A DNA stretch of 64,000 bases from Psammoneis japonica (lineage: Eukaryota): contig QPGO01000006.1 of assembly GCA_008632985.1 (NCBI GenBank), forward strand, positions 248,001 to 312,000, in the 5' to 3' direction. Made by a program: the position numbers and the translations under genes. Below the pieces are notes generated by a model. It was given only the letters and a program-made list of their open reading frames with translations. It did no database searches and was not told where the DNA came from. Shown here in pieces: positions 1,481 to 64,000 of the stretch; the first letter of the stretch is position 1, and every line of letters begins with the position of its first letter.

Positions 1481-1585
1481 GTCTACGATTCAGTTCTAAG
1501 GACTCCCTCTCACCCACTCTCTACCACAGTACGCTACGCGTGTCGCGATTGTTTTTGCGATGCGTGATGTATAGGGCCCTAGGTA

Positions 1586-7290: not shown

Positions 7291-7773
7291 TCTAGAGCTA
7301 CAGTCGTGCTCTGGGAGTAGAGGTGAGAGGGTTGTATGAGGATACTCCATTGTCTTTCGTGCAACACTGTACAATATGCAGCATCATGGAATTTGAAACA
7401 GTACGAATTAATCGCCGAGTTATTCAGCTACCAGCATGTTGACTTGACCTTTCTTCATGTTAGATTTCTTGCGTCAAAGCTGGTGACGTGACACCTCTGT
7501 CTCTCTCTCTCCAGGGCATGTGATTTTTCTAGGTGTTGCGGAAACAAGTGGAACCAATCCATTGCATTGACAACGGTGGCTTGATTCATCTAGCTCATTC
7601 GCTCGAAGGACAGGTCATTGTTAAGTTTGAGTTTCTCTATAACGAATGCTGAAAATCTACAATCTGAAAGTTGTCAGAAGGGCATGCTCTCTTGTGAGCA
7701 TAATGTGCCGCGTAAGGTACCTGACGAGTGCTCGGGCGCTGCCCTTCGTCATCGCGGCCTGGCATTATCAGCT

Positions 7774-10700: not shown

Positions 10701-10856
10701 AGAAAAGCCTATTTGACAGTCATCGAAGCGTTTGCATCCCGTCTCACACCGCCCGAGAAGACGAGAAGGCCCGTCGACATCACCGCGACCAAGAGTCAAT
10801 ATTTGTGTTGCACATAAAAGAGCGAGGGTAATATTGAGCCGTCGGGGAGGCGTCAT
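7774..10856 (-). CDS. Secreted protein with 9 frustulin-like Cys-rich repeats fused to a PhoX-family (DUF839) alkaline phosphatase; intron 8586-8662
   Basis: Signal peptide followed by CxGxC..C..GL.C..R.....PGC.G.G..G..YC repeats. PhoX motifs: PDGAA, YVSNSE, NCGGGKTWYNTWISCEE, EGID, PDQV, ETSGLAFSPD. A phase-1 GT..AG intron joins the two ORFs in frame. Confidence 0.85.
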
Positions 10857-12676
10857 TGTTACTACACGTGTTTGGGCGAACTGGTAAGAGTAAAGATAGA
10901 TAGAGAAACGCACATCGCTCGGAGCTCAGACGTTGCGACGAACGACCAAAGTTTGCATTTTTGGTTCACTGCAATGGTTCGCATGACCAGGTTAGACGGG
11001 ACATTTCTTATACAGTATGTGATGTGTACCGCCATGTTGTACTTCATCACACAAATTGATATATTTGGACATAAGCCCCTATTCTGTCATTTAACAGTCC
11101 CGCGACGCATCGCGAACATGTGTGATCGTAAAAAAATACAGTAATTTAAAAATGAGGAGTCGTACAAACCCCAACGAATAGAGTCGTAGCCCTAGCCGAG
11201 GCCACTCTTGCGCAAAACCCTCTCTCTAGCTAGTGGGGGGTGGGGGCCCTATCTAAAGCGTACTGCAAGATCTTTGAGCCATGCGCCGAGGTATGGCCGG
11301 AAGAGTCATTTCTTTTCTGACTCAGGCCCGAGAATGTCCTCTGCGCGGGGGATTGGGTTCATGGACTCAGCCTCACATGATACCTACTGTACTGTAATGT
11401 GAGTTGGATTCTCGAAATCTCATTACTCGTATAATAGCTTCAATCATTAGTGTTTTCTACATGGGAGGTGGGAGAGTTGCTCCACTTTTCCCCCAACTGA
11501 TAGACTACTCAGATACACATAGTACATAGAGTAGTTTTAGTCACCATAAAGCCATACTACGAACACGGAAACTAAGCCGTACTATGACGATTATCAAAAA
11601 ATCGGATACTGTTTGAAGTCTTTAGTGCAGTTTTGAGCGTTTCGCTGGATGCTGAATAAAGTTGGTGGCAATCTTGCCAAAGTTGTCCTCACTAGAGTCT
11701 GACGTATTTGCGGTATGACAAAGAGACGATACAAACTCTTGAGTGGCGCCTTGGTCCCCTAAATGAGCACTGTTAAGAAAGGAAACTCTTTGTGCCTGTC
11801 GTCTTGAATCAATTCGAGTGCCCACTGCACTGCTGCCTGCTCTGCATGCTCATGAAGGACAGAAAGAAAGGTATTCTAGTGCCGGCGTTGCCATCGGTTG
11901 CCCTCCTTGACGATGCAGTGACATTGCCTGGAACCCATTATGATTGTCTTGGTGACAAAGTGTTGTTTGACCCTGCTCTTCTTGTCGACAGCGTCACCAA
12001 TCTCGTCATGCCAAAGATTTTCTAGATCGGGTTGTCCTTCGCCAACAGAGGGAAGCTCCTGACATGCTTTTTCCAGCTTCCAATGCTCAATTAAAGCCAT
12101 CACAAACTCAAGATTGCCATGCGTTTGGCAATGAAATCGTCAGGCTGCACATCTTTCGACAAGACTCGTAGCGACGTGTTTTTTCGTCATCACAGGACAC
12201 TTGTTCAAACATATTGGAAAAAAAGTTTCAATCAGCGTTCCGTGGATCCAATATTCGGCACAAATCTGCAAGATCCACGCAGCCGTCTCTCGAGATTTCT
12301 GGTTTGGACGCGACATTTTGTCGAGAAGAGCACTGATTTTTGTGTCGAGCGTGGAGAATAAGAATACAAGGGTACAAAATAAGAAAGGAAGACGGTGGGG
12401 TGATCGAGGATTGAGTAGTAGGGTGCCAATGCACAGCTCGCAATAATAAGTTATTTCTAAAAATTGTGTATACTTACGAGGGTTATGATAAGTTCACTTT
12501 GGGGCGTTGGGCAGTGAATGCGGAGGTTGGGCAAACCGCAGTGCTGATAGTAGGCTCCAATCCACTCTCGCAACACTGAGGTTGGTCGTTGGTCCTATCC
12601 TAGACTGTAGTAGTGGTACAATGTTCAATTTTCTAACTTACACGCTCCAAAGATTGCAGTGTATACTTCCCAAATT

Positions 12677-26272: not shown

Positions 26273-26517
26273 GATGGACTGTGAACTGACGAGCAATTCA
26301 GAAATTGTGAGAGCACTCGAACGAGAAGAGATTCTGTCTGCAATGGCTGCGCCGTGGTACAAACCTCGTAGAAATCTACGTGGCGTCAGCCGTTATCGCG
26401 TTGAGTTGATGTTCCAAGAAAGTTTCGCGAAAGTTATTTCGGCGCAGTTGGCGCCCCTATCGATCTTAGCCGATCGTACTTTTAAAATTTTCTGTCTAAA
26501 ATCTGTGCTTTACTTTA

Positions 26518-26863
26518 TTTTCACTTCATTCCTGTTGCAGTCAAATCGAAAACAACATGGCGTCAACGACACCTCGACAGTGCCACCACAGCCCACTGCT
26601 GCAATGTCTCCTGCAGTTCCAGAGAAAAAGGAGGATGAGTTCAAGAAGCCACCCGCCACCCAGCGGGGGGCATTGGGGGCGCTCTTCTCGGAGAAGTTGA
26701 GAAACAACAGCTCTCCCCATGGCACTTTGTTTTGGCTCCAGTGTGATTCTCTCTGTTGCAAAGACTGAGTTTGAAGCTGTGGGCTGATGAGCATCTTTGA
26801 CAATGTGAATTCGGTTGCGGCTGCATTGTGAGGATGAATGATGAGAAATGAGAGAACCTGTCC
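26518..26863. other. Small TpA-free patch (CpG largely retained) over an apparent gene-start fragment
   Basis: No TA in 346 bp, while about 9 CG remain. Contains AAAACAACATGGCG followed by protein-like, disrupted sequence. Confidence 0.6.
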
Positions 26864-31057: not shown

Positions 31058-33514
31058 TTACATTGCATGGTATTTGATGTCGAGACGTTGGCCTCCGAAT
31101 GGTTCGCCGTCGAGTCGAGTAACGTCGAATATCTTCCCATCTTCTTGAAACGAGACATAAGATGCTTGTCATCAGGCGAAAAGGCCAAGCCTGTTGTCTC
31201 GCAAGCTTCTCCGGTCTGAAAAAGATGAATGCAAGTGATTGGTAAGGAATGGAGAGAATAAATCAAACCACACACAACAATCATTCCACTTACTTGTATT
31301 TTTCGAGAATGGTATAAAACCGTCCTTGCGAATCACGGGCATGCACGCCACACGACTCCCCGCCTTCTTCGCAAAAGAATAGCAAATCTTTGTTTCCCAC
31401 GAGCCGAGCCACCTGGTCCGGGCTACCGTCAAAGGTTCCTGATTTTGTCGAGCTTCGAACGTACGTCAAATTGTCATGTCCAGGATAAAGAGGAACTTTT
31501 CCTTTTTGCATGTAAGGTAAATTTTGCCATTTCGAACGTCAATGCCTTCGAGTTCTTTCCATTCAAAATGTTCAAGACAAAACAGTAACGTAAGCAATGA
31601 GCTCTAGACACGACAACAGTACCAAGAAACAAAAATCAACGAGTATCAAACGCTTACCTGGTAGTGCGCCGACGCGCTTGCTCTGCCTTTTCGATTCGAT
31701 TTGACCAGAAAAATGTTCCTTGGTCTCCAGTTGGATCTGGTTTAAGAACCAAGTACTGCGTCTTTCCAGGGGTGTGCAGCAACTCAGAGTAATCGTTTGT
31801 AGATTGTGCTCGAATAACTGCATCGTCATCAGGAGAAAACATGAGCACTGGCCCATCCGCACTATCTGTGTAATAAAAAATTGGGCTTCTTTTGGTCTCT
31901 GTTGTCATAGGCAGCACTTTCGTATTTATCACCTTCACCACCAATTAATGTTTGTCGGCCTTTCACCTTTCCAGATGGATCAACTTCCCACACTTGACCA
32001 CCTACAGGTTAGTTCCATACAAGATTGAGCCAACTCGAGACGGCCAATGGTATCGCAGGCATAAGTACGGGGAGCTTACCTTCGACCTCTTCACAACTGA
32101 GCCATGTTCCCCACCACGTCTTGCCCCCTCCGCAATTTCGTCTAGTATTATCAAGAACCCGTTTATAATCAATCACATTTCCGTTGAGTCAAAACTAATT
32201 GCACCCACACCGCCGCCTCGCGACGTTTCGGCGTTGGAAACGTAAATCCATCCACCAGTGCTCGGATCCGGAAACACGGCTCCGCCGTCGGGATCCTCAT
32301 GCATAACATCCTTCGATTCCATTCCTCCTTTGAATCTTACTGTTTCATTGGTTTTTGCAATCAACTTGGCGGTTAAACCGGTTGAAAGTATCAGGCCATG
32401 TTGAACAACGGAGGTCTGGCCGGGGACATATGTTGGTGATGGCTGAGTCCCTGATCCGGCTCCACCTTGATTCTGAAACAAGTGTTCGGGATCAAAGCAA
32501 TAATCCATGCCTCCGATTCCTTCGCCACGACATCCGGGGACACTATCAGTAGCTCCCTCTCTTCGTTGAAAGCACCAAAGTCCTGCATCGCAATCGTCGC
32601 TTTGCGAGTAGCATTTTGCAAAAGATGGAAATGTCAGACACACACACACACACACATGGAGCGACAGAGCTTTTCATTATCCGTCAGTTGTACTCACTTT
32701 CGATCGCAGTCTCCTTGGCAGCTCTTCAAGGGAAAGGCATTAATTGGTTTTCCCTCGTCAGCCATAAAGACGAGACGATTCTCCTGCGGCCTGTGACAAT
32801 AATCTTGCCCAGAAATTCCTGTCCCGTCACAATGAGGAACTTTTCTATCGTCACGCCGGAAGTAACAAGATAACCCACGTTCACAGTCATTGTCGGTGTC
32901 ACATTCGCCTTGCAATTTCCTAGAGGGAATGCAGACGTTGGCATTCCACCGTCTCCAACCTTGACAAGAACTCCCGTAGGAGGTCGGTAGCAATAAGGAA
33001 CGCCATCAATCCCACCACCAGAACAGCCTTTCACCTCTTCATCTCTTTGTCGTTCTAGCATACAAGATAACCCAAACTTACAATCCTCGTCCGTTTGACA
33101 AGCGCCTTGGCACTCATCAAGTGGATACGCTGTTTCGGGCTTGCCACCTAATCCATTCAAGACGAGTACCTTTTCTTGCGGCTCTGGCCTAAAACAATAG
33201 TCCTTTGCATACTGAGATTTACCAAAACAATGAGGCACCGTTTCATTTGAGTTGCGGTGGAAACATGAAAGGCCCAAATCACATTGTTTATCCCCATCGC
33301 AGTCGCCTTTGAGATGAGCGGAAGGAAAGGCAGATAATTTAGTTGATAAAGAATTGAAAGGTGCTTTCTCAATCTTAGTCTCCTTACCTTCACACTCTAA
33401 CAGAGGATATAAAGATGGATCGTCGGTCGCCTCACCAACATATGCCAGTCGCAATGCTGTAATCGGGATGCATGCAGACAACAGAAATAATGTCGTTCGG
33501 GATAGCAGATGCAT
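31058..33514 (-). CDS. Frustulin-repeat/PhoX fusion, copy 2 (multi-exon, with several apparent frameshifts)
   Basis: Signal peptide and about 4-5 CxGxC repeats, then HEDPDGGAVF, YVSNAE, FDGSPDQVARL, FFCEEGG, ETTGLAFSPD and GQRLDIKYH. Confidence 0.7.
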
Positions 33515-34092: not shown

Positions 34093-36767
34093 CTATTTAA
34101 TCTTTGCAACTGGTGAACTGTGGTACTTGATATCCAGTCTCTGCCCACCAAAAGAGTACCCGTCAGTTCTTGTAACATCAAATATCTTTCCTGCTTCTTG
34201 ATATGAGACGTACATGTGAAGATTGTCAGGACTGAATCCTAGTCCCGTTGTTTCGCCACTGAATTCCTCCCCAGTTGCTTCAAGGATTGTGTAATAGTTC
34301 CCTTGTTGATCTCGCGAATGAATGCCAGTGACGTTGCCCCCTTCTTCACAAAAGTAGAGCATGTCATTTTCCCCACCTACCAACCTTGCGACTTGGTCGG
34401 GACTGCCATCGAATGCACCACCTCGTGTTGAAGATCTCGTGTATCGGCGGTTGTCAATGTCAATGATGAAAAGATGCTTATCTTGCTTGCACGTAATGTA
34501 AAGCAAGCCTTCTCGAAAATCGATTCCTTCGCAGTTTTCTGAATGATCCAGTGCACTTTGCTGTCCATCTAGCAAGATGGGCGACCAACTAAACTTACCA
34601 CGAGAGTCGTTAAATTCGCTAGGCTCCAACACCAAATAGTCAATCCTAGCGGTGCCCGTTGCATTTGAATGCAACAGCTCGCTAAAGTCATTTGTTCGTA
34701 GCGCCGTCTTCACGGCATCTCTATCCGGGGTGTACCTCACGATTGGCCCGTCCGATGCATCTGTGGTAATGAAAAATTTTGGTTTTGTGGAGTCTCTATT
34801 ATCATATGCAGCACTTTCATACAAATTGCCTTGACCACCCATTAATGTCTTTCTACCTTCACTTCTACCCCATGGATCTACCTCCCATACTTGTCCATCT
34901 AACGCAAGTATTGTGTAGAAAGAAAATACTAGGAGATTAGTGAAGTTCAATAGCATACCGTAACACAGGTTGATATCTTGCACTTACTCTCGATTTCTGA
35001 AAATAGTTTTTGAACAAGGAAGAATGTTAGGAGTTTGCGATTACCAACAGTGAAATTTATATGGTCAGGTTATTTTGGCACATTCGCTCTCACCTTCACA
35101 AGTCATCCATGTTCCCCACCATGTCTTCCCCCCACCGCAATTCCGGACAGTGGATTTCTCCTTCAGTACCATTTTGTAGTCAATCACTTCCCCATCAGGA
35201 TTAAACGTAATTGCACCAACGCCTGCAATGAAGAAAAAGCGCGTTAAATTATCAAAAACAGCTCAATGCGTCAAGGCGGCTGGGCAAAGGGGCCCCAAGC
35301 GCTTACCTCCATAGTTTCGAGACTCGGCGTTGGAGACATAGATCCATCCACCCGTCTCTGTATCTGCAAACACTCCCGCACCATCTGGCGCCTTATGAAA
35401 TCGTTCTTCGGACTCACCGCCTCCAAAGAGTGGTACTCGAACACGTTCCTCGGCAATAACGCGAGCCGTGAGACCTGTAGAAAGCACGAGACCGTTTTCG
35501 CGCACAGTAAGCTCGCCAGCTTTAAACGTCTCTGGACCTTTTGGAGGTTCATAACAATATGAGACACCCTCGACACTGCCAGACCCGGCATTGATACAGC
35601 CTGGAACAAAATGAGTGGTACTGGATCGTTCAAAGCAGTAGAGCCCCTTTCCACAATGGTTATCTTTGCCACCACAGTCGCCTTGGCACTTTCCACACTT
35701 GGAAGAACGACTGCAAGTGCCTGTGTTTTGGAGGGAAATGGTTGATTTGGGGCGCTCCTCAGGTGCAGGAACAGAAGCTGCTTTCTCTTGTTGTTGCTCA
35801 ATGCAGTATCCAATTTCCTTGAATCCATAGCCACTACATCCAGGGACGATACTATTACTATCACCGTCGCCACGGTGACACACAAGTTCCGATCTGCAAT
35901 CTGAGTCCACTGTGCAGTCTCCTTGGCAAATCCCAAGAGGGAACGCATCCTGTGGTTCTCTATCCTTCGCAACCCTGACGAGGACCTTTTCACTTTCATC
36001 GGGAGCATAACAATAATCAATGCCGGCTTCTCCTTTGCCAGAACAACCATTTACCTCTTCATTTTCGGTTCGACTCTTGCAGGACAAGCCCAACTGGCAT
36101 TGCCTGTCGCTATCACAGTCACCCTCACACAAGCCAATAGGATACAATTCAGGATCTGTTTTCTTGTCGCCCACCACGACAAGTTCCGGCAGCTCTCCAA
36201 AACAGTAATTCTTCCATGGCAAACCCACCCCGTTGCAACCGGGAATAGGGTCGTCCCTATAGCGGTTATAACACTGCAGTCCGGCTTTACAGTCAGAGTC
36301 TGTATCGCAAGTACCCTCGCAACGCCCAAGGGGATAGGCGTCTCGAGGTTTCCCCTTTTCCGCCATGAGCACCAACGTCGTTCCCTTGACTGGTCGATAG
36401 CAATAATCCTTGCCTGTTTCGGCGTATCCTTTACAACCCAAAACATCTTCATTATTATATGAAAGCAACGGCGGCAATTGGCAATGTGAGTTAACAAGTG
36501 AGAGAATCGATTTTGGCAACCTCTCCCTTAAAGAGAGAGAGAGAGAGAGAGAAGATTTGTCTCCTCACCTTCATCGCGGCGGCGCTGGGCACACACCAAA
36601 CCATACTGACAGTCACTATCGTCATCGCAGTCACCTTGGCACAAGCCCAACTCGTGTGATCCGCCTTCGACGTTGCCAATCATGTCAAAGTCAACGTCTG
36701 CGGCAACCGTTGCAGCACCAGGTGCGATGTGCAGACAATCAAAGCACATTTTAACAAAAGTTGACAT
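34093..36767 (-). CDS. Frustulin-repeat/PhoX fusion, copy 3 (multi-exon; 5' end uncertain)
   Basis: 5 C(E/Q)G(D/T)C repeats, then HKAPDGAGVF, YVSNAE, YESAAYD, CEGID, ETTGLGFSPD and GQRLDIKYH. Confidence 0.75.
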
Positions 36768-51377: not shown

Positions 51378-53412
51378 TCATCTTTCCATTTTCTCTAGTT
51401 CTTCCAAATGAATCTGATACCTATCCGCATTGGACATTACGTAATGTGCCACTGTTCGCTTATTGGTTTCGTCAGGAGGACTGTCACCTTCCTCTAGTAC
51501 GCCCTCAAATTTTTCCTCGCTTCGACAAGACACATTACAAGCACGAGCCAACAATCCCGTGGCGGCGTCTTCCCATGGCAGATAGTCAAGGTCCGCCATT
51601 TTGGATACGGCACATGTGACCACGTCTCGTGACAGCGCGTATCCGCATCCGCTCGCATAGGGTGGAAAACTGCGTTGTGGATACAAACGCCTAGAGGTAA
51701 ACCATGAATAGGACGTGTCACGTTTGACAAGTCGCGCCTTTTCCGACATGCATTTGCCCCAATATCAGGTTTGTGTTTGGAAAGAATGCGAGAAATCTCT
51801 TGCACACCAATGTACGAATCGTCGTCCGTTTTGAAAACATAATCATAGTCATCGTCGTCGTGCTGCAATATGGTATCGACTGCTTGGAAAAAGATTTGAG
51901 TCTTGAATGTCAGCAAGAGATAGTCTTCCATCATGTCGATCCATAGCAAGTCACCGTATTCATAAAACTCATCCTTGATTTCCTCCCAGAGACCACTCAC
52001 GATAAACAACACAACATGGTGGTCTGTGGTGGCTGCCCATGTGTTGCGAATCGAGTGTCGGGTATTGGGTGTCGCTGCATTCGATAAGACTCCAAAGATA
52101 ATTTTCAAATTATCTGAATTATGTTGTTGTTTGGTTTCTCTTTATCCAAGTGGGATACCGATAGGTGAATGTCTTGGAGGAAACAACTGCCCGACCTTGT
52201 CCATTTCGATAGCTTCATGTGGCTCTGCAGTCATGTGCTTTTCAACAGTCATGGCTTCCCTGATGAGAGACTGGACAAACAAGGAATGGGGATGATCCGG
52301 AAAGACAATCGACTGAGCCACGGCCAAGTTTTGCAACTTGCGCTCCAAATCCTTCTTGGAATAATACTTATTGAGGTTGGATATCGCCTTTGTGGGTCCT
52401 TGACAAAGTCGTCATGCTTGATGAGATCGAAAATCCTCCATGTTTAGGCTCGATGGAAAGGGACCAAAGGAGTCTTGGTAGAACGAGTTGTCGTCCACAA
52501 TGACGGGAATGCATCCTGCACGAATGGCATACAAGAGCGGATTTGAATGCGGTGGGTCACCGGAAAGAAACAAGCAAAACTTGGACGACAGCAAGCGCCG
52601 TTGCCATTCTTTGGGTGGCAAGTTGTTTTCCAAACTTATTGGTTCGAGACGGATCTTTCTGTCCAGCTCGGGTAAAGACGGCAGAGTGAAGGGTTCGTCC
52701 GGAATACTCGTGTTTCTGTGATAAAACAAAACGTACTTGGAGTTGTTGTACTTCTCCAGAGTTGGTTCTTGTATATCAAAGGGCGCGTCCATACCTAGAC
52801 CTGTAGAAAAGCCCTTGGTTATTGGTCTCATATCGCCCAATAGGCTGGGGTCAAATAGCTCGCTACAGTCACATTGGCGAGAAGTTTGTAATGCCTCGCA
52901 AGCGCAGGAACGTAGCTTGCGTACTTTGAATTGAAAAAATACGATCCATGCGAAAGCAACACATGATTGCTTCCATGCGTCTTTTGAAACAGTTGGTGAT
53001 GTCGTAGAGTGTCAAAGGACTTGTCGTACGAAGTGCACGTTTCGTCCTGACAGTCATAGGCAAACAATTCAGAAATCAGAGTCGGAACAATGTAGAGCTC
53101 CGCCTCGTTGGGATCTCGTGTGCGGAGCGGATGCTTTTCGAGCGCCTCCATCATGATGCGCTCCGCCTCGGCGTTTCTTAGAATATGATCCAAGTGAGAA
53201 CAGGTTCGTGAGAGTTCAGCGTCTCTGCGGAGTCTCTTGAGGGAAATCGTGAGCTCGTGGGAAATTTCGTATTCATCGTAAATGTAAAAGCGCGTGTTGA
53301 CGTTCTTGAGATCATCAATTGATATAGCTCCATAACAGTAAATATGGCATAGAATGAGCAACGCTGTCGTTAAAAAGAAGAGTCTGTGCCGCCGTCGTTG
53401 AAACATCGTCAT
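51378..53412 (-). CDS. Probable exostosin (GT47) plus beta-1,3-galactosyltransferase (GT31) fusion glycosyltransferase, with several apparent frameshifts
   Basis: TM anchor. GT47 motifs: FYIYD, RTRDPNEAELYIVP, SKFCLFLSGD..YAIRAGCIPVIV. GT31 motifs: RHSIRNTW, EDY..LTFKT, FKTDDDSYI, PPYASGCGYALS, EDAATG. Confidence 0.65.
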
Positions 53413-53614
53413 GGTCGATCCTGTTTTGTGCTCCTCTAACTTATGTGTTTTGGCCTTTTGTGCTTTTAACTGTCCGTCCTTCAGCCGGCGATGGACTAAT
53501 TTGTATTGCCCTTTGTGGCGACAGGCGCGCGCCCGCCCTTGCCAAAATTCCAAAAAAACGATGCGAATCATCCAAAACATCACCCATCCACATCACACAA
53601 CAGACGTATCAGTA

Positions 53615-54604
53615 ATGACATCAAGGTCACTGCTACGCACTCATGATTTCGTTTCCTACATATGCACTTTATGCTTATGCCATATTCCCTTTTGTAGCTG
53701 GAGTGTAGCGTTTCTCTATTCGAAACGCTACAAAATATGCCCACTGATCAAGTGCGTTCGACCCTTGGCAAAATGCCTCAAACAAGACGCCTGCATGGTA
53801 GTTCTCGAGTGTCTCACCGAGTGCGACAAGGAACATTCCGAGGCCAGATTACAAGCGCAACGTGATTTTTCACATGTTTTCTTTCCAAACGATCCGTCGC
53901 TGTGTCGGTACCAGTGTTTTGATCAAATCACAACCATGACGGCCGAATACTTTTTGAATTGCGTGGGGGGTTCGGGTTGTCTCGAGCCATCGCCACCCGA
54001 ATTTGCAATTCCGCCTGCACCAAACAACATTACTAATGTGCTTCCCTTTGACACTATTGAATCGGTACTTGCGGGAAAATGGATGAAACTGTATACCAGT
54101 GGTTGGGACATTTGGCCTTGCCAAAAGAGTCAATTTCATCCGCCCCACTCGAGCGAACCGCTTCCGGAAGCGTACATGCAGTCATGGCCACACGAGCCAA
54201 ATGTTTGGCGCATGGATTTGCGATGGAAACTACATCAAGATAGCAATTATACCTTTCACATGTCGAACGAATTCTATCCTGGCCGACAATGGGAGGGCTT
54301 TGCGGGTCAACCACAAGACGCGATCGCGACACTCAAGACACGAGCCGTTATGTGGGGAACCGAGGCGCATGAGAATTGGTATCTGCTGGATTACAATGCC
54401 GATTTGCAAACGATGTTGGTGTATTATTCTGCTTTCACAGAGGCGGTTCAAAAGATGGACAATATTGTCATGGTGTTGCGAAAAGAAGGCAGCGGTCCCT
54501 TTACCAAGGAAATGGCAGCAACTATTGAACAAACGGCTCGAAACGCGCTGGGAGACAGATTTGGTAAATTATATCGCATCAAGGACTGTAATCAAACTAG
54601 CTAA
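53615..54604 (+). CDS. Violaxanthin de-epoxidase-like/related protein (Cys-rich plus lipocalin domains)
   Basis: C..KC...LAKCL....C....CL..C...C..QC..FLNCV....CL, followed by GKW and WDIWPCQ, and ENWYLL. This is the VDE-family architecture. Confidence 0.6.
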   Translation: MTSRSLLRTHDFVSYICTLCLCHIPFCSWSVAFLYSKRYKICPLIKCVRPLAKCLKQDACMVVLECLTECDKEHSEARLQAQRDFSHVFFPNDPSLCRYQCFDQITTMTAEYFLNCVGGSGCLEPSPPEFAIPPAPNNITNVLPFDTIESVLAGKWMKLYTSGWDIWPCQKSQFHPPHSSEPLPEAYMQSWPHEPNVWRMDLRWKLHQDSNYTFHMSNEFYPGRQWEGFAGQPQDAIATLKTRAVMWGTEAHENWYLLDYNADLQTMLVYYSAFTEAVQKMDNIVMVLRKEGSGPFTKEMAATIEQTARNALGDRFGKLYRIKDCNQTS

Positions 54605-54723
54605 CTCTTTTTTCTTGTTCTTTTCATTATGGAGGCGCGAATAGTACGAGCTCTTGTGTGAGACTGTTTTGTAGCAACGATAGGCTTACATTGCAAAATC
54701 GTGTGCTCCACTTCTCATCAGCC

Positions 54724-54804
54724 GCCCTCAAGGTTTGAACTGAATTCTTGTTTACCCTAGTGCTTTGATTACTCCCCTCAAGGTTTGAACTGAATTCTTG
54801 TTTA
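54724..54804 (+). repeat. Direct repeat (31 bp x2, 50-bp period)
   Basis: CCCCTCAAGGTTTGAACTGAATTCTTGTTTA occurs twice. Confidence 0.85.
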
Positions 54805-55738
54805 CGGTAATGTTGTGATTACTCCACAGCGCTGGCCGGTGGTTGGCTATCAGAATAGGAACGCAAAGGCAGTCTGTGTACTGTCCTCCCTCTTTGAAGC
54901 TCCTTAGCTTCTTCGCAATGGCGGCAAACAGCAAGGCGTGTACGGCTTGCTTGGGAGTTCTCCACGACAGTGGCAGGTACAGGCGATGTCCTCTCTGTAT
55001 ACCAAAGCGAGCAACACAACGCACATTAATGTCGAAGCTAAGGCAACTTGATGCGAGCGGCTCGGTCGCTGTTGTTGCGGAGGTCGATTGGAATCACTAG
55101 GAGCAAGACGTTTGGAAGATTGCTTTGAGTTTTCGGATGGACGTTTAATGGTGGTGCATGATGGTGGTGCAAAAAAAAAAAAAAAGGTGTCTATGGCGAA
55201 ATATGCTCAGACCAGAATACGTGCGTTTGTACGACCAGTTTATTGCTCTTCTCGGCACCAGGCGGCGCGATGTCGGCATGACACCCCTTCAAGTCACAAT
55301 GGATATTCTATACAAAGCAGCAAGAAAAGTGACATGGACGGTTACTTAAAATTTGCTCTGTTGTAACCGAAGGCACTGGTTGAGGTTTTTGCAGCGGGAC
55401 TCAAAGAGTGCATCGTGTTGGATTATAACGTGTGGTCTGTTTTTTCAACTTTGCGGCGTTGGATGAACACATGCTAGAGTGATGAAACTATGGTCCTCCA
55501 GAGGTGGAAAGCCATGCCTGCGAACTCTCTAGATACTAAGGATGCCTACTTTTTGTGTCGCGACCATCTCTACTTCAATTCAAGGACGAGATAAGAAAAC
55601 GTCAGACCTTAGATAGTTAAAACAGACAATTACAGGTATTCGATGATGCTATGAGTGTGGAGAGAAAAATGACTGCACCGCATGGGGATGTGAACCCCAG
55701 ACGGCTCCATTGCTCGTTGCATCATCGAGCTGAAGAGA

Positions 55739-56904
55739 CTAAGACGACGAGCTTCCGGAACCATTGCCACTGTGGGAACTCCCGCCGCTGCTGCTGTCGG
55801 AACTACCACCTCCGCCGTTGTCAGAACTGCTGCTCCCTCCGTTTTTCTTGTCGCCGTTTTTCTTCCCACATTTTTTGCGACTGGTAGTGTAGAGCGTAAC
55901 CTTGCGGCCGTTAAGATCCTGGACGGGGCGACTCGTGCTTCCTGTCTTGGATGCGGCAGTTCCTAACTCGCAAGTCTCCTCGTCAATGTATCCCAACACC
56001 AGATCAGTAAGTCTCCTGTACTGATTGACGGAGATCAAAAGAGGTTTGTCGGAAACGCTCCAGAATACGTTCTCCGTGCAAGGTGGAGTCGTAAGACCCC
56101 CCTCATAGAAGAAGAATGAGGAGTCATCAGGGACGAAGTCGTACACGTTGAACTCGTCGCCTCGGTGATTGAGTTCGCGTTCGCCAGGTTCTGAATTCTT
56201 CTTTTCTCCAAGGAGTTGGCGTCCCTTCAATTTACACTCCTTCTTCGTCTTCAGGGCGTCCAACTCTAATTTCAGAAGAAACTTCTCGAACAATTCATTT
56301 GTTTCCGGATTACCTGACTTAACGAAAAGTCCCACCACGGCGAGCATACCATCATCAAACTTTCCTGGCACCCTCTCATGGACAATATGCATCTCCCCTC
56401 CGAATTGCTCCCCATCAAGGGTGTGCTCTGAGCTGAGATGGACGTGAACCTGAGCGGGCGTGAATCTACCCCAAATTCCGGGTATTTTCAACCTGTCACC
56501 ACAGTCCTCTTCATACTCGCCCTCGATGACGTGATTATTGGTAAAGAAATCCAGGTCTTCCAAGGTACAATGGCCATTCTGAACAGAGGAAAAATGAACA
56601 AGATGATCATGTGAGTAGAACTGGGTTTGGCTGTTGTCGTGTTTGAGAGCCAAAACATCACTAGTCGTACCTGGAATTTGTACTTTCCACGCTTCTTCAC
56701 AACGCTACACGTATCGATCGCGATCGGACTGTTCTTCTTGCCATCACAAACATCCCCGTCAATGCACAGGTTGGCCCAATTGTCAGGTCCTAAAGGTTCC
56801 GAGGGGTCGTACCTGTAGTCAGCGCAAGGACGACCAGCACCAAGGATGCGAAGAGGAAATGCAGCAGCCAACAAACCTGCAAGTGAAAGACGACAGAAAT
56901 GCAT
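55739..56904 (-). CDS. Secreted alpha-carbonic anhydrase; intron 56579-56670
   Basis: Signal peptide, GPDNW, NSPIAI, QVHVH..SEHTLDG...[18 protein letters not shown] and RPVQDLNGR, with a Gly/Ser tail. Confidence 0.92.
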
Positions 56905-57481
56905 CCTGACTTTTATCGTTTTACTTTTTTGTGCGCTTCGAAACCGAAATGTGATGACAGTCGGCTTTGCAGGAATATCACCGATTCTGGTTATGTTGAA
57001 GGAAGACCGTTGCCATTCTCGATTTTGTTTATCTATAGCCCTTTAAAACCATAGTATGGAGAGATAATTGTCTTACGAATGTGTCGCAGTGAGTCTTCGG
57101 CTGAATTTACTTATTGTAATGTCCACATTGAATTTTCCCCTCTGGAAACAAGGCATTTTAACATTTATGCCTTGCAAACACTACTTAACCGCAATAGTTG
57201 CAATAGCTTATCAATGTCATTTTTGCAAAACAATGTTTAACGAAAGGCTACGGGCCTCTTAACCGTACGGTGGAAAGGTACGACCCATTGCCCATTACAT
57301 TCTCGTTGATCTGTGTTGGTTGCGCGATGACATGCCCGCCCGGGGTGGACTGACAAAAAATGTCAAAATGAAAAAAGAGAATCCGCATCACAAGTGTTTT
57401 GTACCATGGCGACTTGCACTGACAATGCAGCTGATCCACTCCCGCAGAGGAGTGGTGTTGACATTTTTTTCACGTGGTCTA

Positions 57482-60400
57482 GCTTGCATTGCCAGCTGTG
57501 ACCTGCAACTTCACTTCCCCGCTGGGCCTGGAGAGAGTGTTGACATCCGCCCATCTGTTTGTGGCTGCGTCACGACTGACAACATGTGGGCATGTGTGAA
57601 AGCTGAGCAAGGGCCCAAAGCAAGAAGATCATCATGGGCTGGTGGGCTCAAAGCCAACGATGTGGATTGCCCTTTGTGCGGTGCTGCGGGTGACTGACAG
57701 ATGCTCTGTTGTCACACAGCTTCAAAAAAAAAAGCTCTGCAGCAAGATTTTTTCAGAGAGCCACCCTGTCACACAGACTTTGTGCGTGCCATCACAGCCA
57801 GCACAGCCTCCATGACAGATGCCTGGCAGGAATCCAAAAATGTGCAGAAGCTGAAAACCCAAATGCTCAGAGGATGGCACACTCATTGCAGCAGCTCTCA
57901 ATCTGCACTTCAACGCACTCCTCTCACCTGGCTGCAGGAGCACTGGGCTTTTGCAGTCAGGCCATCTTTTCCAGCCTCACGGAGAAGCAGAGTCAAGCCA
58001 CTGTGTGCAAGGGTCAGCTTGGCTGTGCTGTGTGAATGACTCCAGCTGTTGCAAAAAAACTCAAACCCAATTTTAAGTGCTGTTGCACCTTTTTGCCCAG
58101 CAACACTGGCACCGGCTGACCCACACTTCCAGTGCACCCTGCAAGGGGTGCGGAAGAAGTTCATGCAATCAGCCGGTTGACACATTGCTTTGCAGCAATG
58201 CACACTGGAGACAACATGCCAAGGAGAAATTGCACAAGAATGAGGCCATTGCTTTCTTTTGGAGAAGATTTAAAGCACCAAAACTGCTGCATGCAAGCCA
58301 CAAGGTGTTGATGCCAGTCATTTTCCACTGAAATTGTCTCACATCACAGTGAAATGAGGGTGTGCCAACAGCAGAAGGGGCCAAAAGGGTGTGGGGTCCC
58401 AGCAAAACACCATCTGAAAAGGGCAACATCAGCATGAGATCGCATGCAGAAACACATGCAGGGGCTGTGAGTGGGTGGCTGATGTCAGGAAGTGACTCCA
58501 GCTGTCAGAGCTTCAGCTTGGGACAATCAACTCCCAAGCCAATTGCTCCATGATTGTCCATCAGATGCACAAAGTCCTGTTTGCTGGTGTGTGCTGAAGA
58601 GAGCACAAAACATGAGACCAAGGAGAACAAAGACCATGCACTGGGTGCATTTGCTGGTCTGGTGGAAATGAATCTAGAGTGTGATGAGCATGACACACAC
58701 ATCAAGAAAAGACACTTGAGAGCTTCTTGTTCAAAAGCTTTGTCCAGCAAAAGTTGTCAATGAGGCAGGCTTCAGAGGCTGCTTGATGCTGGGGCTGCAG
58801 AGCCCAACTCATGCAGCACACAAGCCACAAGCAAATCCACCAAAACACGTTCAGCCAGTGGAAATGGTGCAGAAGCACAAGTTGTTGCACTTTGCTTGGG
58901 GCAACAGTCTTGCTGGCTTTCTTGAGGTCCAACAGGACAGCGCTCTGGTTGTTGGCAGCACACAATGTCTGGGAGAGTAAAATTCTTGCTTGCACCATTT
59001 TCTCATGGTGCAAGAAATCCTGCACACCTGCATTGCTGAATTTCCTGCACCCTCAGTTCTGGATTTTCTGTCCAGCAACACAGGCTCCCCATGCACATTT
59101 GCAGGAATTCCTGCACACAATGTGAGTTGTCCTTCTTGGCCAACCACACAGACAAAAGATCCAAGGATTGGGAGGGTTGCAGGGTGCAGGTTTGCTTTGG
59201 CTCACAAGCACTTTCACCCAGCGTGCCTCCTGAGTGGATGGATCCACATGTCTTGTTGCCTCCTTCTGTCCATCTCAAGTGCTGTCTTGCTCCACCCATC
59301 TCATTGCCTCCATCCATCCACCCTTCCATCTAAAAGCCAACTTCTGCTGACAGGCAAAAAGAGCCATCACATGTGGTGCAACCACCGCTGCACTGCAAGC
59401 CAGTGCAAGCAATGTGCTGCAGTTTAGAGAGTTCAACTCAAATCAGGTGGCACTTGTTTTGAGTGTGCAAAACACTCTTGTTCTTGTGCAACCCCATCCG
59501 CTGACTGTGTCATGGCTTCAGCAGCTTGAGGAGGGGGCTTCTCTGTTGCTCATGCCATCCTTGGCTTCAGCGCACAATTTGCCAGTGCCCCACACCACTT
59601 GTCCCATTGCACCATTTTCACCTCTTTTGCAACAAAAGAGTGGTGCTCACATCATTTCTGCCTGAAGCAGTGCTCTTCAGTTTCTGGGTGCTTCTCTCAA
59701 TCTGTCTTGACTTTCTTGAAGAGCACAACTTGCTGAAGCAAGTGAAGTCATCATGGCGCCTTTCACAACTTCCCATTGAAGGTGTGCTTCCATGGGTCAA
59801 TGGTCTGGAATTTCTTCTTTGGCCTTTCCACATTCTTTGGTGGTGCCCTCTCTCATTCTGCAGCAGTGCTCTTTGTCAAGTGCTTTCTGGCATTGAGCAG
59901 GTGAAAGCTTCAGTGCTTGGCATCATCCACACAGACAGCATCTCATGTTCTCAAGGCTGCTCAAGCTCTCAGCAAGATCCCCTCTTTTTGTCATTTTGGT
60001 TGTAAACACAAGGTGAGGGGCTGGCTGCATCAACCTCATCTGCAAAGTGTTTGACAATGGCATGCTGCAGTTTCCATGCTTGTCCCTGGCACCCCCACCC
60101 TCACTCTTTCCATTGTGTTTGTCTCTTTCCAGCCAGCATCTTGCTGACTCTGCCTCCTTGTTGCCTTGTTCTCCACCAAGTCTCATTGCGGGGCTGCACA
60201 AAAACTCTTTTCTACAACTTTGGCCCACACTCCAGTTCTGTGTCTTTCACAATGAACATTTTGTGCAGGAAAATTTCTCTGGCAACATCACACTTGGTGA
60301 TCTGTTGCTGAGCAAACCTTGCCTGCATTGCATCAAAAGAATGTCAATGAGTTGCACAGCAGGTTTCAGCATGACAATGTCACTCTGCACTGCCAACAGT

Positions 60401-63400
60401 GGTCCTGGAAGATCTGGTCATTGTCTGCTGCTCTTGTTTTCAAATGTTGGCATTGGTGTGATCATGACTCTTTTAAGCTCCCCACCAGTTCCCAGCAGTG
60501 TTTGTGTGTTTTTTTTTTTGAACATGCAAAGCATGCACACTCTCGTGACCCCATCTCTCAATGTGCAATCACTTGCATTGCTGGCATTTGCATCTTTGAG
60601 CACACAGATGTGCATTTCATCAAGAAGATCCAATCTGGCACACCACTCACCTGCTGTTGGGCAGACACAAATTTGTGTTGTTTCACACATGCACAAATTG
60701 CTTGTCATGTGTGCCAACCCAGGCACAGCAGTGTCCATGCAAAAGAGCTTGGCACTTTGTGTTTGCAGCCAACCACACAATGTGCAGCTGTCTTGTGAGA
60801 CTGGGATCCACTTCAAAGCACTCATGGTGTGCCCACACATGTGCCTGTTGTGCAAACTCAGTGCAGAGAACACTGTGACAGTCATTGAGGTTGGTTCTTT
60901 GTGGCTGCCAATGCACCATTTTCACAGACAACCACACCACACAATGCATGGCTGTCTCAAAGCCCCGCTCCACTTTGTGGCACTCCTCTGCACATGTTTG
61001 CACTTGCACAAATTCATGCAGAAAACATTGGTGCTTGCTGAGCTTGGGTCTCAATGAGCACTCATGTTTCCCCTGTGCTTCTGCCCAATGAAGCGGCGCT
61101 GCTGCAATTTTGCAATGCAGCACAACATCAACCCACAGGGTGTCCTCATCCAACCAACTCACCCTGCCATTTCTGCAGTCTGTCTCCAATGCAACAATGA
61201 GGCAGGCCTTGATGGGGAGGACTTTGAAAAGCCTTTCAGACATGGGTTTGAAACATTTCTGGTGAGACATCTCAAAACAAGAGCTCCTTTGCAGCACAAG
61301 TTGAGACAGGTGCAAGGTGAAATTTGCCACAACGTGTCAGACAATCAACAACACATCAAGCCTGGAAGATGATGACACATCACTTGTCAGTGATGTCAAC
61401 CATGAGGTTGCAAAATGCCAGGGTTTTCCTGCACCCACAATTTGAGTGTGTGGTGCACCAATGGAGCTCAGTGGTCAAATTGAGGCTTGTTGAGTGATCA
61501 ACCCCACCTCAGGCAATCCTTCCCACATCTTCTGAAGACTTCAAATTTGCAGTCAACAATGCAAACATTTTGCAGGTGTGAAGAAAGAAAACAGAGCTTG
61601 GCAGTTGCTGTTCCATGATGACATGGATGAAATTGAAAAGACACGGTGGCTGGCAGACCATGGGGTGTCAATGGAGCACAGATCACAAGCTTGCATGTCA
61701 CAATTTGGCAGCAGAGGAGTGAAAGAAAGGGAAATGGGCAAGCTCCCAGCAGCCTGCATTGCCCCCAATCACAAGCTCCAATGTTTCTGCTTTTTGCAAT
61801 TTTCTGTTCTTGATTTTGCAGACTCAACTTCCTTGCTTTTTTCCTCAAACAGCAGTCTCTCTTCACACTGAAATCAGCGCGGCTTGACTCAGCTGAGCTG
61901 TGATGTGAACTCTGCTTTGCCAATGCTGCCATTGATTCTCAGTGAGTCAACAAGCGCTGCAGCACAACATGGGGATGCTGTGTGCCAATGACACACTTGC
62001 ATTCCATCTTCTTGACCACATCAAGATGATTGAAGATCTGATGGTTGAAGCACTCAGACAAAGCTTTGGAGACACCACCTTGATCAAAACCTTGGAACCT
62101 GTGCCAGCTGCTGCCAACATGTGGAAGTGTGCCACACTGAGATCTTTGTGAGCTGGAGGGAAGAGTTGCCAAAGAAAAATCTGTGCAGTCTTTGCCAGAG
62201 TGGGAACTCAAAAGTGAGAGCTTCCAGAGACTTTTTGTCACTCTCAACATCTCCAAGAGCACTTGAGTTGCAAGTGTCTGGTTTGGTCATGAAAAGCACC
62301 ACAGAACCAAGAAAATCCTTGCAGCCCCCAAAAAAGTCAGCTGGACATTGATTTTCTCTTTTGGCAATTCTTGGTTGAACCAAAAGTTGAGACAGCTGTG
62401 ATGAAGCTTGACTTCATTGTGGGCAAGGTGCTGGCAGCAGTCAGCTGGGTTTTGTGCTGAGCTTTTGGGTTGGCAGCATCAAACTTGTGGAGATGGTCTC
62501 AAATGAACTCATGACCTTGATGCCAGATTTGTTCTTGACATTGTGGGGCAAGACATTTCTTGGCAATGACCTTTTTCCAGTTCTTGGGCAGTTTGGATGA
62601 AACAATCCTTGCCCAACTCATCAACAGAGGTGTGTAAAAAACCAAGTTGGCTGCTGAACTTGGAAGTCATTGCAGAAGCTTGTTGATGTCAACAAGAGCA
62701 TTTGATTGAGCCAGTTGCTTCCAGGTGGTGTGGCACTGTGATGCAAAGCTGCAGGCAGTCGACAGACTCTTTTGCTTGCAGCTGCCATCTGATGTGGAGT
62801 GACCAACATGACAAGTGGCATGAGGCAAGTGTTGGACCCTGCCATCAAAGAACCCACAAACTTGGAGTTGCAGCCATGGCAGCCATTGCTGGCTGCCTCA
62901 ACACTGGCATTGAAGACACTGGGGCTTTTGTGCTGTGTCCCTCACATGGCAGCAGGGTGCTTTGGCAACAACACTGTGCCCAACTTGTTTCCGGGCTCAA
63001 AGCAAAATGGTCATTTGCGGTGATGACCTTGTGAGGAGAGCTGCGGGCTGTTCAGCTGAACACTTGATGTTCCTGCTTCTGAGCTGGAGTTCACCACACC
63101 TCCATGCAAGGGTGAATGGCAGCACCAGCACCAATTGGTTCAAAAATTGTGGTCATTGCTGCAGTTGCATCAAAAAGGCACCAATCTTGAGACATTGTCA
63201 AATTGAATTGCAGCCAGCCCCAACACTCTGCACATCACTTGTGCTGTCTTTCTGCACGCTGCTGAAGCTGTGCAGCCACATTCACACTGTGCAGTGTTGC
63301 AGAGCTGCAGCACCACACTTGCCAAATGCAGTTTTTGAGCTGACTTTCCTCTTCTCACCCAAAACATGCACACAGCACCTTGAAGCTTGCCATGGTCTGT

Positions 63401-64000
63401 GTGCACTGAATCTGCCATCAAGAAATGGGGTCCAAGCACAGAGACAAATGCCAGAGTGTTTTCTCAGAAACACACAAAACAGCCACATCAGAGCCCAGCT
63501 GCTGCCACTGAGCATCTTTGGAAGCCTGGTGATTGGCAAAACAGATGTTCTTGGCTGGAGGTGATTGACTGCAATGTGAGGCCCTGCATGTGACTCATCA
63601 TTCTGTCAGCACTGGTGTTTTGTGATTGAATCACAGCCACCATGGTGGCCGAGTGCTTTTTGAAATGCATGGGTGATGCTTGGGTTGTTTCTCAATTGGA
63701 TGCCACCCAAGCTTGCAATCCCAACTGCACCAAAAACAACAATTTGCAGTTGTGCTTTCATTTGAAACAATTGAACTGGCACCAGTGGGAAAAATGATCA
63801 AGTTGTTCACCAGTGGATTGGACAACATCATCATCCCCACTCCAGCTTCACGAGCCTCTTGCTTCTGGAAAGCACACCGCAGCCAATGCAGCCATGATGA
63901 TTGGGGTTTTCCAAATCAACCAAGAGATGCTCGCATGGCACTCAAGACAAGAGCCATCATGGTGGCAAACCGAGGCACATGTGAAAGTTGGCATCTGCTT
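57482..64000. other. Hypermutated tract B: TpA-erased and CpG-depleted, probably decayed TE or gene sequence; runs off the window end
   Basis: Manual scan finds 10 TA in about 6.5 kb and none between 60476 and 62634. About 40 CG remain. ORFs are Tyr-free and Cys/His-rich. Confidence 0.92.

Follow-up and report, generated by a model that had tools for sequence, protein, structure and literature searches.

Duplicated or foreign DNA can be inactivated by regional hypermutation, which is, to our knowledge, well known only from the fungi, where it takes the form of RIP, and, in a milder form, as CpG decay. In Neurospora crassa and other fungi, RIP introduces only C:G>T:A transitions, mainly at CpA; it raises TpA, lowers the G+C content and hits both copies of a duplicate, takes place in the sexual phase and requires a cytosine methyltransferase homologue of the RID/DIM-2 type. 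Methylation-driven CpG decay is known from vertebrate genomes and from the CpG or TCG hypermutation of basidiomycete transposons; its usual floor is a CpG observed/expected ratio (o/e) of about 0.2, and TA is unaffected. Adenosine deaminases, among them ADAR and the TAD2/TAD3 of fungal editing with U at position -1, act on RNA. Finally, very-short-patch repair bias depletes CTAG in enterobacteria, and the spectra of mismatch-repair deficiency comprise C>T at CpG plus T>C. Here we analyze a 64,000-nt window of the diatom Psammoneis japonica (contig QPGO01000006.1, positions 248,001 to 312,000) containing DNA from which both TA and CG have been erased, a combination for which no description, in diatoms or elsewhere, was found in full-text literature searches (subscription journals lie outside their coverage).

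Results

Dinucleotide counts place the erased DNA under study, termed tract B, at positions 57481-64000 of the window (6520 nt), and it continues beyond the window end, probably for about 230 bp. Counted over 57482-64000, it contains 10 TA (o/e 0.02), at 58074, 58271, 58675, 58978, 59331, 59425, 60003, 60213, 60474 and 62635, and 41 CG (6.3 per kb; o/e 0.11), together with 793 CA (o/e 1.90) and 749 TG (o/e 1.88); the TpA/ApT index is 0.03 (10/335). The original prediction had listed ten TA in about 6.5 kb, all of which match exactly, a CG density of about 5-6 per kb, close to that counted, and a 2.1-kb run without TA. This run, the longest in the tract, measures 2160 bp (60475-62634), and the probability of such a gap at the background rate of 0.0437 TA per base is about 1e-40. 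The G+C content of tract B is flank-like (0.49; background, 0.47), and pyrimidine-purine (YR) steps occur at 244 per kb, as against 238 in a second tract of the window, tract A, and 242 in the background. In a simulation that randomly converted all background CG and TA to TG or CA, CA and TG reached 121 and 122 per kb, respectively, and the values observed in tract B are 122 and 115. This two-context model leaves unexplained an excess of GC in the tract (80 versus 56 per kb), raised AG/CT in both tracts and a deficit of AT and GA/TC, for which extra context effects, such as A>G at ApY (small counts), are needed. The 41 leftover CG exceed what very fast decay predicts.

The numerous Tyr-free open reading frames (ORFs) of tract B had been regarded as spurious, and the homology searches support this view. 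Six-frame Pfam analysis (stops as X) yielded no family at E<=1, in a search that also missed the VDE remnant described below and is hence insensitive here, and a 336-aa ORF (60047-61057) obtained only two phmmer matches among 1.84 billion representatives, both to tandem-repeat junk proteins and neither a real relative. No three-base periodicity was detected in the tract, and Rfam and tRNA scans of it returned nothing.

The TA and CG arms of the signature differ in spatial footprint. At the left side of tract B, TA thins from 57297 and reaches its edge at about 57481; the intervening transition zone (57297-57480) has sparse TA (11 per kb) and normal CG (49 per kb), compared with 54 TA and 42 CG per kb in 56981-57480 as a whole. 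At all three visible edges, TA is absent (0 per kb) from the innermost side's first 250 bp, where CG is found at 28-48 per kb; deeper in, CG occurs at 3-8 per kb.

A composition this extreme might be suspected of being an artefact, arising from base-calling or polishing error at modified bases, from a chimeric join or from contamination. The contigs of a public DNA run (X1), the sample of which may be the same that gave the assembly, nevertheless reproduce the tract at about 99.7% and continuous with diatom genes, at flank depth (word depth of about 63 in tract B versus about 57 in the flanking genes); a single contig covers 58408-61869, differing by 7 letters and 2 gaps. Furthermore, strand-specific miscalls at modified CG would also make TA, yet TA is absent. 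Its coverage at flank depth means that the tract did not arise as an assembly artefact or through a chimeric join, an explanation that we regard as extremely improbable, and that it is not multi-copy: apart from two embedded repeat pieces, tract B is real single-copy diatom DNA. Among the single-copy differences listed between the window and X1, at least 19 fall within the 6.5 kb of tract, versus at least 4 in 3.5 kb outside, and those in the tract include three TG<->CA double changes and six CG/TG, CA/CG or TG/TA pairs. The presence of such double flips among the differences listed suggests that the mutation process is ongoing.

The first embedded piece (58054-58440) is a high-copy short repeat, with a summed word depth of 4236 (58008-58341) and 767 (58342-58675) versus about 60 elsewhere, that is found in 31 contigs at 58090 and shows loose ends at 58053/58054. 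It retains 2 TA and 3-4 CG and is younger than its surroundings. At 58092, the consensus of its other copies carries TA and CG where the window shows CA and TG; with these TA>CA and CG>TG changes in an embedded repeat, the process is seen to act on whatever sequence sits in the tract. A YR-degenerate pattern derived from this repeat gave no matches in metagenomes. The second piece (62350-62683) has a depth of 386, about 6x that of the flank. In addition, transition-tolerant alignment revealed an old internal tandem duplication (60767-61067, plus strand) with both copies, 60767-60914 and 60930-61067, inside the tract (score 94, where 200 shuffles reached at most 46; 36 transitions, 14 transversions), and 10 of the 32 YR steps shared by the copies are TG in one and CA in the other. 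Besides one small tandem, the internal repeats of the tract are short, chance-level families only.

Tract A (1585-5444) presents the same signature on unrelated sequence, with 6 TA, 49 CG, 437 CA and 426 TG in 3860 nt; the two tracts flank a 52-kb gene block. The recurrence on unrelated sequence had been taken originally to fit a regional process, a reading that holds: blastn of tract A against tract B yields only chance-level matches of at most 31 nt, and weakly constrained DNA outside the tracts is not erased. A passive alternative would make CG and TA hypermutable throughout the genome, with an equilibrium visible only in DNA free of selection. The moderately low TA of the genome at large (o/e 0.5-0.8) and the fact that three of the four differences listed outside the tract are also at CG or TA would be in line with such an equilibrium, but weakly constrained DNA elsewhere keeps both dinucleotides. 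In 14 long ORFs outside the tracts, the codon 3|1 junctions have an o/e of 0.91 for CG and 0.58 for TA, and in 15.7 kb of ORF-free DNA the o/e is 0.93 and 0.78, respectively; such values cannot be reconciled with the excess rates of more than 10-fold that the tract requires, and 25 TA are present in the 300 bp immediately outside its edge. The process is therefore regional, and we consider the passive explanation very unlikely.

The progenitors of part of the tract DNA could be identified within the window. The final 420 bp of tract B in the window derive, as a diverged copy in direct orientation, from the 3' half of a neighbouring VDE-like gene. This hypermutated copy (63582-64000, plus strand, offset by 9.7 kb and continuing beyond the window) was recognized by blastn and by purine/pyrimidine (R/Y) identity to 53881-54387: positions 63617-63824 match 53914-54110 at 71% nucleotide identity (86% R/Y over 243 nt from 63582), and 63904-63999 match 54295-54387 at 74% (90% R/Y). 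The parent VDE-lipocalin gene (53411-54604, plus strand; PF07137, E 1.3e-16) is intact, presents normal TA and CG and has diatom relatives at up to 63% identity. According to an X1 contig, the copy runs on colinearly into a second copy of the segment downstream of the parent (54623-54974, plus strand), located about 230 bp past the window end. The duplicate is 10-14% diverged just beyond the tract (19 letters differ in 133 nt, and 15 letters in 146 nt, the latter with 2 gaps) versus 26-29% inside it. Other diatoms were sampled through relatives of the VDE gene in metagenomic contigs, and these 9 loci (about 40 kb), too small a sample to judge spread, contain no TA-free stretch of at least 250 bp.

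In tract A, positions 4254-4836 (plus strand; the coordinates are direct and the gene lies on the minus strand) are a hypermutated copy of 8282-8840, with 71% nucleotide identity over 583 nt, 90.4% R/Y identity over 584 nt and tblastn E values of 3e-18 to 5e-15, and positions 4009-4115 (plus strand) are a copy of 7371-7480 (71% nucleotide and 94% R/Y identity). The parent region (7371-8840, minus strand; ORFs 7774-8634 and 8655-10913, both on the minus strand) has normal TA and CG, and the parent gene lies 4 kb from its copy. Across all copy/parent pairs, plain blastn letter identity is 71-74% and R/Y identity 86-94%, and the gene copies in the tracts are decayed, with stops and indels. Of the 10.4 kb of tract DNA, only about 1.1 kb could be assigned to a parent. 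For about 6.1 kb of tract B, a transition-tolerant scan of the entire tract, in which only the last chunk matched, found no parent in the window, tblastn of 204 window ORFs provided no further one, and the X1 contigs contain no partner at 80% likeness or above, this DNA being single copy. Both of the progenitors identified are ordinary host genes. An origin from transposable elements, for which the original prediction had proposed a search, shows no sign and finds no support, with about 6.1 kb of tract B still lacking a progenitor.

Comparison of the tract copies with their parents over 946 aligned bases revealed 197 transitions and 47 transversions, a transition share that may be inflated where the alignment is ambiguous, since transitions were scored mildly; the plain blastn and R/Y identities are independent of this scoring. 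None of the 42 parental TA is kept (18 became CA and 16 TG), and only 3 of the 47 parental CG are (21 became TG and 17 CA); 13 of the 131 parental CA/TG have flipped to the other form, but only one is now CG and none is now TA. Per parental base, the frequencies are 23.6% for A>G, 19.9% for T>C, 22.0% for C>T and 17.8% for G>A. Both strands are hit, without long runs: TA>CA and TA>TG are intermixed, and no strand-coordinated runs of TG or CA outcomes were seen. With a paralogue as outgroup, a noisy test in which all three sequences differ at 17 sites, 64 changes are tract-specific versus 27 parent-specific. The original prediction had asked whether related copies regain TA and CG, and the parents in the window indeed carry them at normal density where the tract has TG or CA. 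The tract signature arose by mutation. What is observed here is how the substitutions are patterned, which way they run, their confinement to the tracts and the signs that they continue.

Transitions make up the overwhelming share of the changes, both strands are hit, and those pieces that can be identified duplicate nearby genes in a linked, direct arrangement. These traits would suit a classical RIP-type defence that detects and mutates duplicates in one or a few homology-triggered bursts, for instance premeiotic ones. However, RIP mutates both partners, and here the parents are intact with normal TA and CG; A:T>G:C is as frequent as C:G>T:A, and TA is lost instead of being created. The greater part of the tract is moreover single copy, without a sufficiently similar partner in X1, and the differences from X1 that bear the same signature speak for a process that continues. 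The tract edges, in addition, are set by position and not by where homology ends, given that the VDE duplicate extends past the erased part. In view of these discrepancies, a RIP-type burst seems unlikely. Selection rather than mutation bias might also be invoked, the tracts being functional elements or foreign DNA that avoid TA and CG (to evade CG methylation, TA-targeting transposons or a nuclease that cuts TA) or a structural chromatin element. The absence of both palindromic YR dinucleotides, the sharp TA edge and the position of the tracts on either side of the gene block are compatible with this idea. Against it, the tracts are made of decayed copies of ordinary host genes, share no common sequence and lack periodicity, Pfam, Rfam or tRNA matches and an internal repeat architecture. 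Among the differences listed, tract B also departs more from the X1 contigs than its flanks do, and TG<->CA flips are a prediction of fast mutation; we thus deem selection quite improbable.

Discussion

The signature is probably the product of a transition hypermutation in two arms, C>T at CpG and A>G at TpA, that acts on dead duplicated DNA and is restricted to a domain. Tract B, as well as tract A, would be non-functional nuclear DNA in which dead copies of genes and pieces of repeats are mixed with older sequence that is no longer recognisable. It would lie in a domain with sharp boundaries and a mutation regime of its own, where two context-specific transitions would be far faster than all others. 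The C:G>T:A transitions at CpG would most simply reflect deamination of 5-methylcytosine in silenced DNA, and the A:T>G:C transitions at TpA would imply an adenine-directed (or thymine-modifying) activity with a weaker ApY preference. Both arms presumably act on either strand, turning each CG and TA into TG or CA. Ordinary transitions would recreate CG and TA from CA and TG, to be immediately resolved again, and this re-resolution would keep TA and CG near zero, leave the G+C content and the purine/pyrimidine skeleton unchanged and make TG<->CA double flips. Methylation, the chromatin domain and the enzymes are the components of this explanation that we infer.

More tentatively, it is conceivable that diatoms, or at least this lineage, possess a two-armed DNA mutator linked to genome defence or heterochromatin. 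One arm, a putative and previously undescribed activity, might turn the adenine of TpA on duplex DNA into a guanine-pairing base (or make the TpA thymine pair as cytosine) and, together with CpG deamination, might drive silenced or duplicated DNA to a TA-free and CG-free state; this could be the stramenopile equivalent of RIP, targeted by domain and not by homology, with G+C unchanged. No described mechanism was found by which A:T>G:C transitions would remove nearly all TpA within sharp bounds. If enzymatic, this loss implies a natural adenine- or thymine-directed activity on duplex DNA with dinucleotide specificity, relevant to genome defence, diatom epigenetics and base-editing enzymology. 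From a practical standpoint, such tracts yield long, spurious Tyr-free ORFs that gene callers will annotate, and they hide pseudogenes from ordinary similarity searches; alignment in a purine/pyrimidine alphabet recovers these pseudogenes, as it did here.

With RIP, the tracts have in common a transition hypermutation that makes duplicated genes unrecognisable and stop-ridden, and that operates at the DNA level, on both strands and in a dinucleotide context, producing sharply bounded compositional islands. Unlike RIP, A:T>G:C is equally frequent in the tracts, TpA is erased (TpA/ApT 10/335) with G+C unchanged (0.49 versus 0.47), and the functional parents are untouched, with 47 CG and 42 TA in 946 nt and ORFs still open. 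Regarding the duplicate status that marks RIP targets, about 1.1 kb of the tracts duplicates nearby genes, and for about 6.1 kb of tract B no partner was found in the window. The resemblance to CpG decay, which is concentrated in silenced or repeated DNA, lies in the conversion of CG to TG or CA on both strands, and the similar numbers of CG>TG and CG>CA (21 and 17 from 47 parental CG) are those expected of 5-methylcytosine deamination. In a bioRxiv preprint (10.64898/2026.09.02.747768), AG/CT enrichment is treated as a second-order effect of CpG hypermutability, and AG/CT is likewise raised in both tracts. In contrast to CpG decay, however, the tract o/e falls to 0.11 for CG and 0.02 for TA, and the TA arm has a footprint different from that of the CG arm. 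Deamination of 5-methylcytosine was rejected as the source of the whole signature: the 42 parental TA have all disappeared as well, through A>G or T>C changes, a loss that C>T cannot bring about.

The strong preference of A>G for a 5' T/U is reminiscent of adenosine deaminase hyper-editing. Since these deaminases act on RNA, the trace that they would leave once fixed should be strand-asymmetric, and RNA-level A-to-I hyper-editing fixed by retro-copying was discarded in view of a balanced and intermixed outcome (18 TA>CA versus 16 TA>TG; 793 CA versus 749 TG). This balance argues for an activity on duplex DNA or one that reaches both strands. Very-short-patch repair bias and mismatch-repair deficiency, in turn, are similar in being repair or replication biases that remove TA words or give both kinds of transition, but their effects are few-fold, genome-wide and word-specific, whereas the tracts show a near-complete, domain-restricted loss of every TA.

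Composition of the erased tracts

Tract B, the TA- and CG-erased stretch that occupies window positions 57482 to 64000 and runs beyond the window end, contains exactly the ten TA listed in the original prediction (58074, 58271, 58675, 58978, 59331, 59425, 60003, 60213, 60474 and 62635), as confirmed by recount, for an observed/expected ratio (o/e) of 0.02. CG is reduced to 41 occurrences (6.3 per kb, o/e 0.11), CA (793) and TG (749) reach an o/e of 1.9, and the G+C content of 0.49 is similar to that of the flanks. The longest run without TA (60475-62634) spans 2160 bp; from the background TA rate, a run of that length would have a probability near 1e-40. Tract A (1585-5444) carries the same signature (TA 6, CG 49, CA 437, TG 426) and, as originally noted, is unrelated to tract B, no sequence being shared between them.

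Pyrimidine-purine (YR) steps occur at 244 and 238 per kb in the tracts versus 242 in the remaining window, so that the identity of the steps alone differs. When all CG and TA of the background are randomly converted to TG or CA, 121 CA and 122 TG per kb result; tract B has 122 and 115. Because YR frequency is unchanged and the simulated CA and TG values match, tract B looks like ordinary local DNA that has suffered one transition per CG and TA, with its purine/pyrimidine skeleton and G+C intact. This two-context model leaves unexplained an excess of GC (80 vs 56 per kb) and of AG/CT, and a deficit of AT and GA/TC, in both tracts. A preprint reports that, in vertebrates, CpG hypermutability gives rise to AG/CT enrichment as a second-order effect (bioRxiv 10.64898/2026.09.02.747768). 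Elsewhere in the window, 347 bp (26517-26863) lack TA, and 26690-26811 within them also lack CG, amid normal DNA; this could be a miniature tract or merely biased coding sequence.

Genomic setting

The flanking ORFs encode a VDE-lipocalin protein, an alpha carbonic anhydrase, a fatty-acid desaturase, a sulfotransferase and a Utp12 protein. The relatives of the VDE-like protein are diatom proteins (Nitzschia inconspicua, 48%; Odontella aurita, 38%; the best, unnamed match is 63% identical), and the window is therefore diatom nuclear DNA, its lineage having no close relative in the protein collection searched. The carbonic anhydrase ORF (55739-56904, minus strand) has a long Ser/Gly-rich C-terminal tail; about 580 bp separate the start of this ORF from the left edge of tract B.

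Comparison with contigs of X1, a public DNA sequencing run taken from the same sample, shows that tract B is genuine single-copy DNA, continuous with the neighbouring genes: word depth is about 63 in the tract versus about 57 over the adjoining genes, and a single contig crosses 58408-61869 with seven other letters and two gaps. Two repeated pieces are embedded in it, at 58054-58440 (summed X1 depth up to 4236) and 62350-62683 (depth 386). The core of the former (58054-58160) is a short element of very high abundance in the Psammoneis japonica genome, since summed depth over 31 contigs reaches about 15800 at 58090; a degenerate pattern of this core had no match in the metagenome collection.

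Parents and substitution spectrum

Parents, the normal gene copies from which tract DNA was duplicated, were sought inside the window by sensitive blastn and by a search in a two-letter purine/pyrimidine (R/Y) alphabet. Two segments of tract B, 63617-63824 and 63904-63999, derive from 53914-54110 (71% letter identity; 86% R/Y identity over 243 nt from 63582) and 54295-54387 (74%; R/Y 90%), both within the intact VDE-like gene, 9.7 kb upstream of the copy. In tract A, 4255-4836 corresponds to 8283-8840 (71%; R/Y 90.4%) and 4017-4114 to 7382-7479 (71%; R/Y 94%). Orientation is direct in every pair, and tblastn of 204 window ORFs confirmed these homologies and added none. For the other 6.1 kb of tract B, no parent exists within the window (transition-tolerant scores 49-58 vs 189 for the last chunk), and progenitors were found in the 64-kb window for about a tenth of tract DNA. 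The segments 8282-8840, 31895-32256 and 35018-35208 are mutually paralogous on the minus strand and form a local gene family that matches nothing in Pfam; the tract A copy has 78-81% R/Y identity to the latter two.

Four parent/tract alignments (946 aligned bases, 56 gap columns) yielded 197 transitions and 47 transversions; they penalised transitions mildly, but the contrast between letter and R/Y identity is independent of that scoring. All four transitions are common as a share of parental bases (A>G 23.6%, C>T 22.0%, T>C 19.9%, G>A 17.8%). Only three of 47 parental CG persist (21 became TG, 17 CA) and none of 42 TA (18 CA, 16 TG). By comparison, 100 of 131 parental CA or TG are kept, 13 having flipped to the other form, with one CG and no TA, where independent sites at the observed rate would place about a quarter of these steps in a CG or TA state. 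Transitions per site amount to 0.46 at CG/TA, 0.125 at CA/TG and 0.16 elsewhere, and transversions to 0.04-0.065. Outside TA, A>G is more frequent before a pyrimidine (0.21-0.38) than before a purine (0-0.14), although counts are small, and A>G at ApY may be the source of the GC excess. TG and CA outcomes are interspersed, and therefore both strands were struck in many separate events. Polarising the changes against a paralogue as outgroup assigns 64 to the tract copy alone and 27 to the parent alone.

Edges and regional restriction

Weakly constrained DNA outside the tracts shows no erasure, be it the codon 3|1 junctions of 14 long ORFs (CG o/e 0.91, TA 0.58) or 15.7 kb without long ORFs (0.93 and 0.78), which supports the regional process originally proposed. 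At each of the three visible edges, TA falls to 0 per kb in the 250 bp immediately inside, a zone with 28-48 CG per kb, and CG declines to 3-8 per kb only further in; left of tract B, TA is sparse from 57297 on and CG is normal. The footprints of TA and CG loss thus differ, TA being lost at edges where CG still stands at 28-48 per kb.

In one X1 contig, the VDE copy extends colinearly beyond the window end, where it goes on as a copy of 54623-54974. This part is only 10-14% diverged (19 letter differences over 133 nt, and 15 with 2 gaps over 146 nt) and, among the differences listed, altered at TA and CG in part only. Hence, the erased state seems to end about 230 bp past the window end while the duplication continues. 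The 9.7-kb offset (53881-63581 vs 63582 onward) is compatible with an old tandem duplication whose unit spans the 3' half of the VDE-like gene, the carbonic anhydrase gene and tract B; most of the second unit would lie past the window end.

There is no coding signal in the tracts: they lack 3-base periodicity, six-frame searches gave no Pfam family at E<=1, no Rfam families or tRNAs were found, and a search of 1.84 billion representatives gave no true relative of the 336-aa ORF of tract B. Their long ORFs are, as anticipated, a by-product of TAA/TAG loss.

Signs of continuing change

The embedded high-copy repeat retains a few TA and CG, with TA>CA and CG>TG relative to the consensus of its other copies. 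The two copies of an old tandem duplication within tract B (60767-60914 and 60930-61067) are separated by 36 transitions and 14 transversions, and TG in one copy faces CA in the other at 10 of 32 shared YR steps. Window and X1 contigs show at least 19 single-copy differences inside tract B; the 19 listed comprise three TG<->CA double changes, three CG (window) vs TG (X1), two CA vs CG, one TG vs TA, six other transitions and four transversions. These are best read as alleles, and the process is apparently still running. Outside tract B, three of four listed single-copy differences (54349 TA>CA, 55457 CG>TG, 57403 TA>TG) strike TA or CG, numbers too small to show whether the bias also operates, in a milder form, across the genome.

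Proposed mechanism and comparison with known systems

It seems rather likely that the tracts are a graveyard of dead duplicated DNA under domain-restricted, two-context transition hypermutation. Transitions would arise throughout the domain, CG and TA being transient and giving way to TG or CA on either strand, and any CG or TA newly made from CA/TG would be resolved at once, back or to the flipped form. Such a model would account for near-zero TA and CG on an unchanged skeleton and G+C, and also for the flips between parent and copy (10%) and between the two in-tract copies (31%) and for the allelic double changes. If the tract is stationary, the ratios to CA+TG (10/1542 for TA, 41/1542 for CG) imply decay at about 150 times the rate of formation for TA and 40 times for CG. 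It is unlikely that selection for a TA/CG-free element shaped the tracts, given that they consist of decayed host genes and repeats without common sequence. RNA editing with a 5' U preference does not fit, the strand-asymmetric trace expected of it being absent.

Diatoms methylate repeats at CG, and 5-methylcytosine deamination in silenced DNA would be the obvious cause of CG loss. For TA loss we know of no established mechanism or enzyme; candidates may include adenine deamination in TpA on duplex DNA, a TpA thymine modification pairing with G or, less plausibly, a repair or replication bias limited to this chromatin. Combined TA and CG erasure was not found described in a full-text literature search covering journals other than subscription titles. 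Among known systems fungal RIP comes closest, but the features that define it are not seen here: RIP causes C:G>T:A only and raises TpA, whereas the tracts show every transition type and have TpA erased, and, unlike in RIP, G+C is unchanged and the parent copy in the window is untouched. About 1.1 kb of the tracts duplicates nearby genes; most of tract B has no partner in the window or, at 80% likeness or more, in the X1 contigs. CpG decay, in turn, accounts for CG loss alone. The process would be a regional hypermutation of a RIP-like or CpG-decay-like kind.
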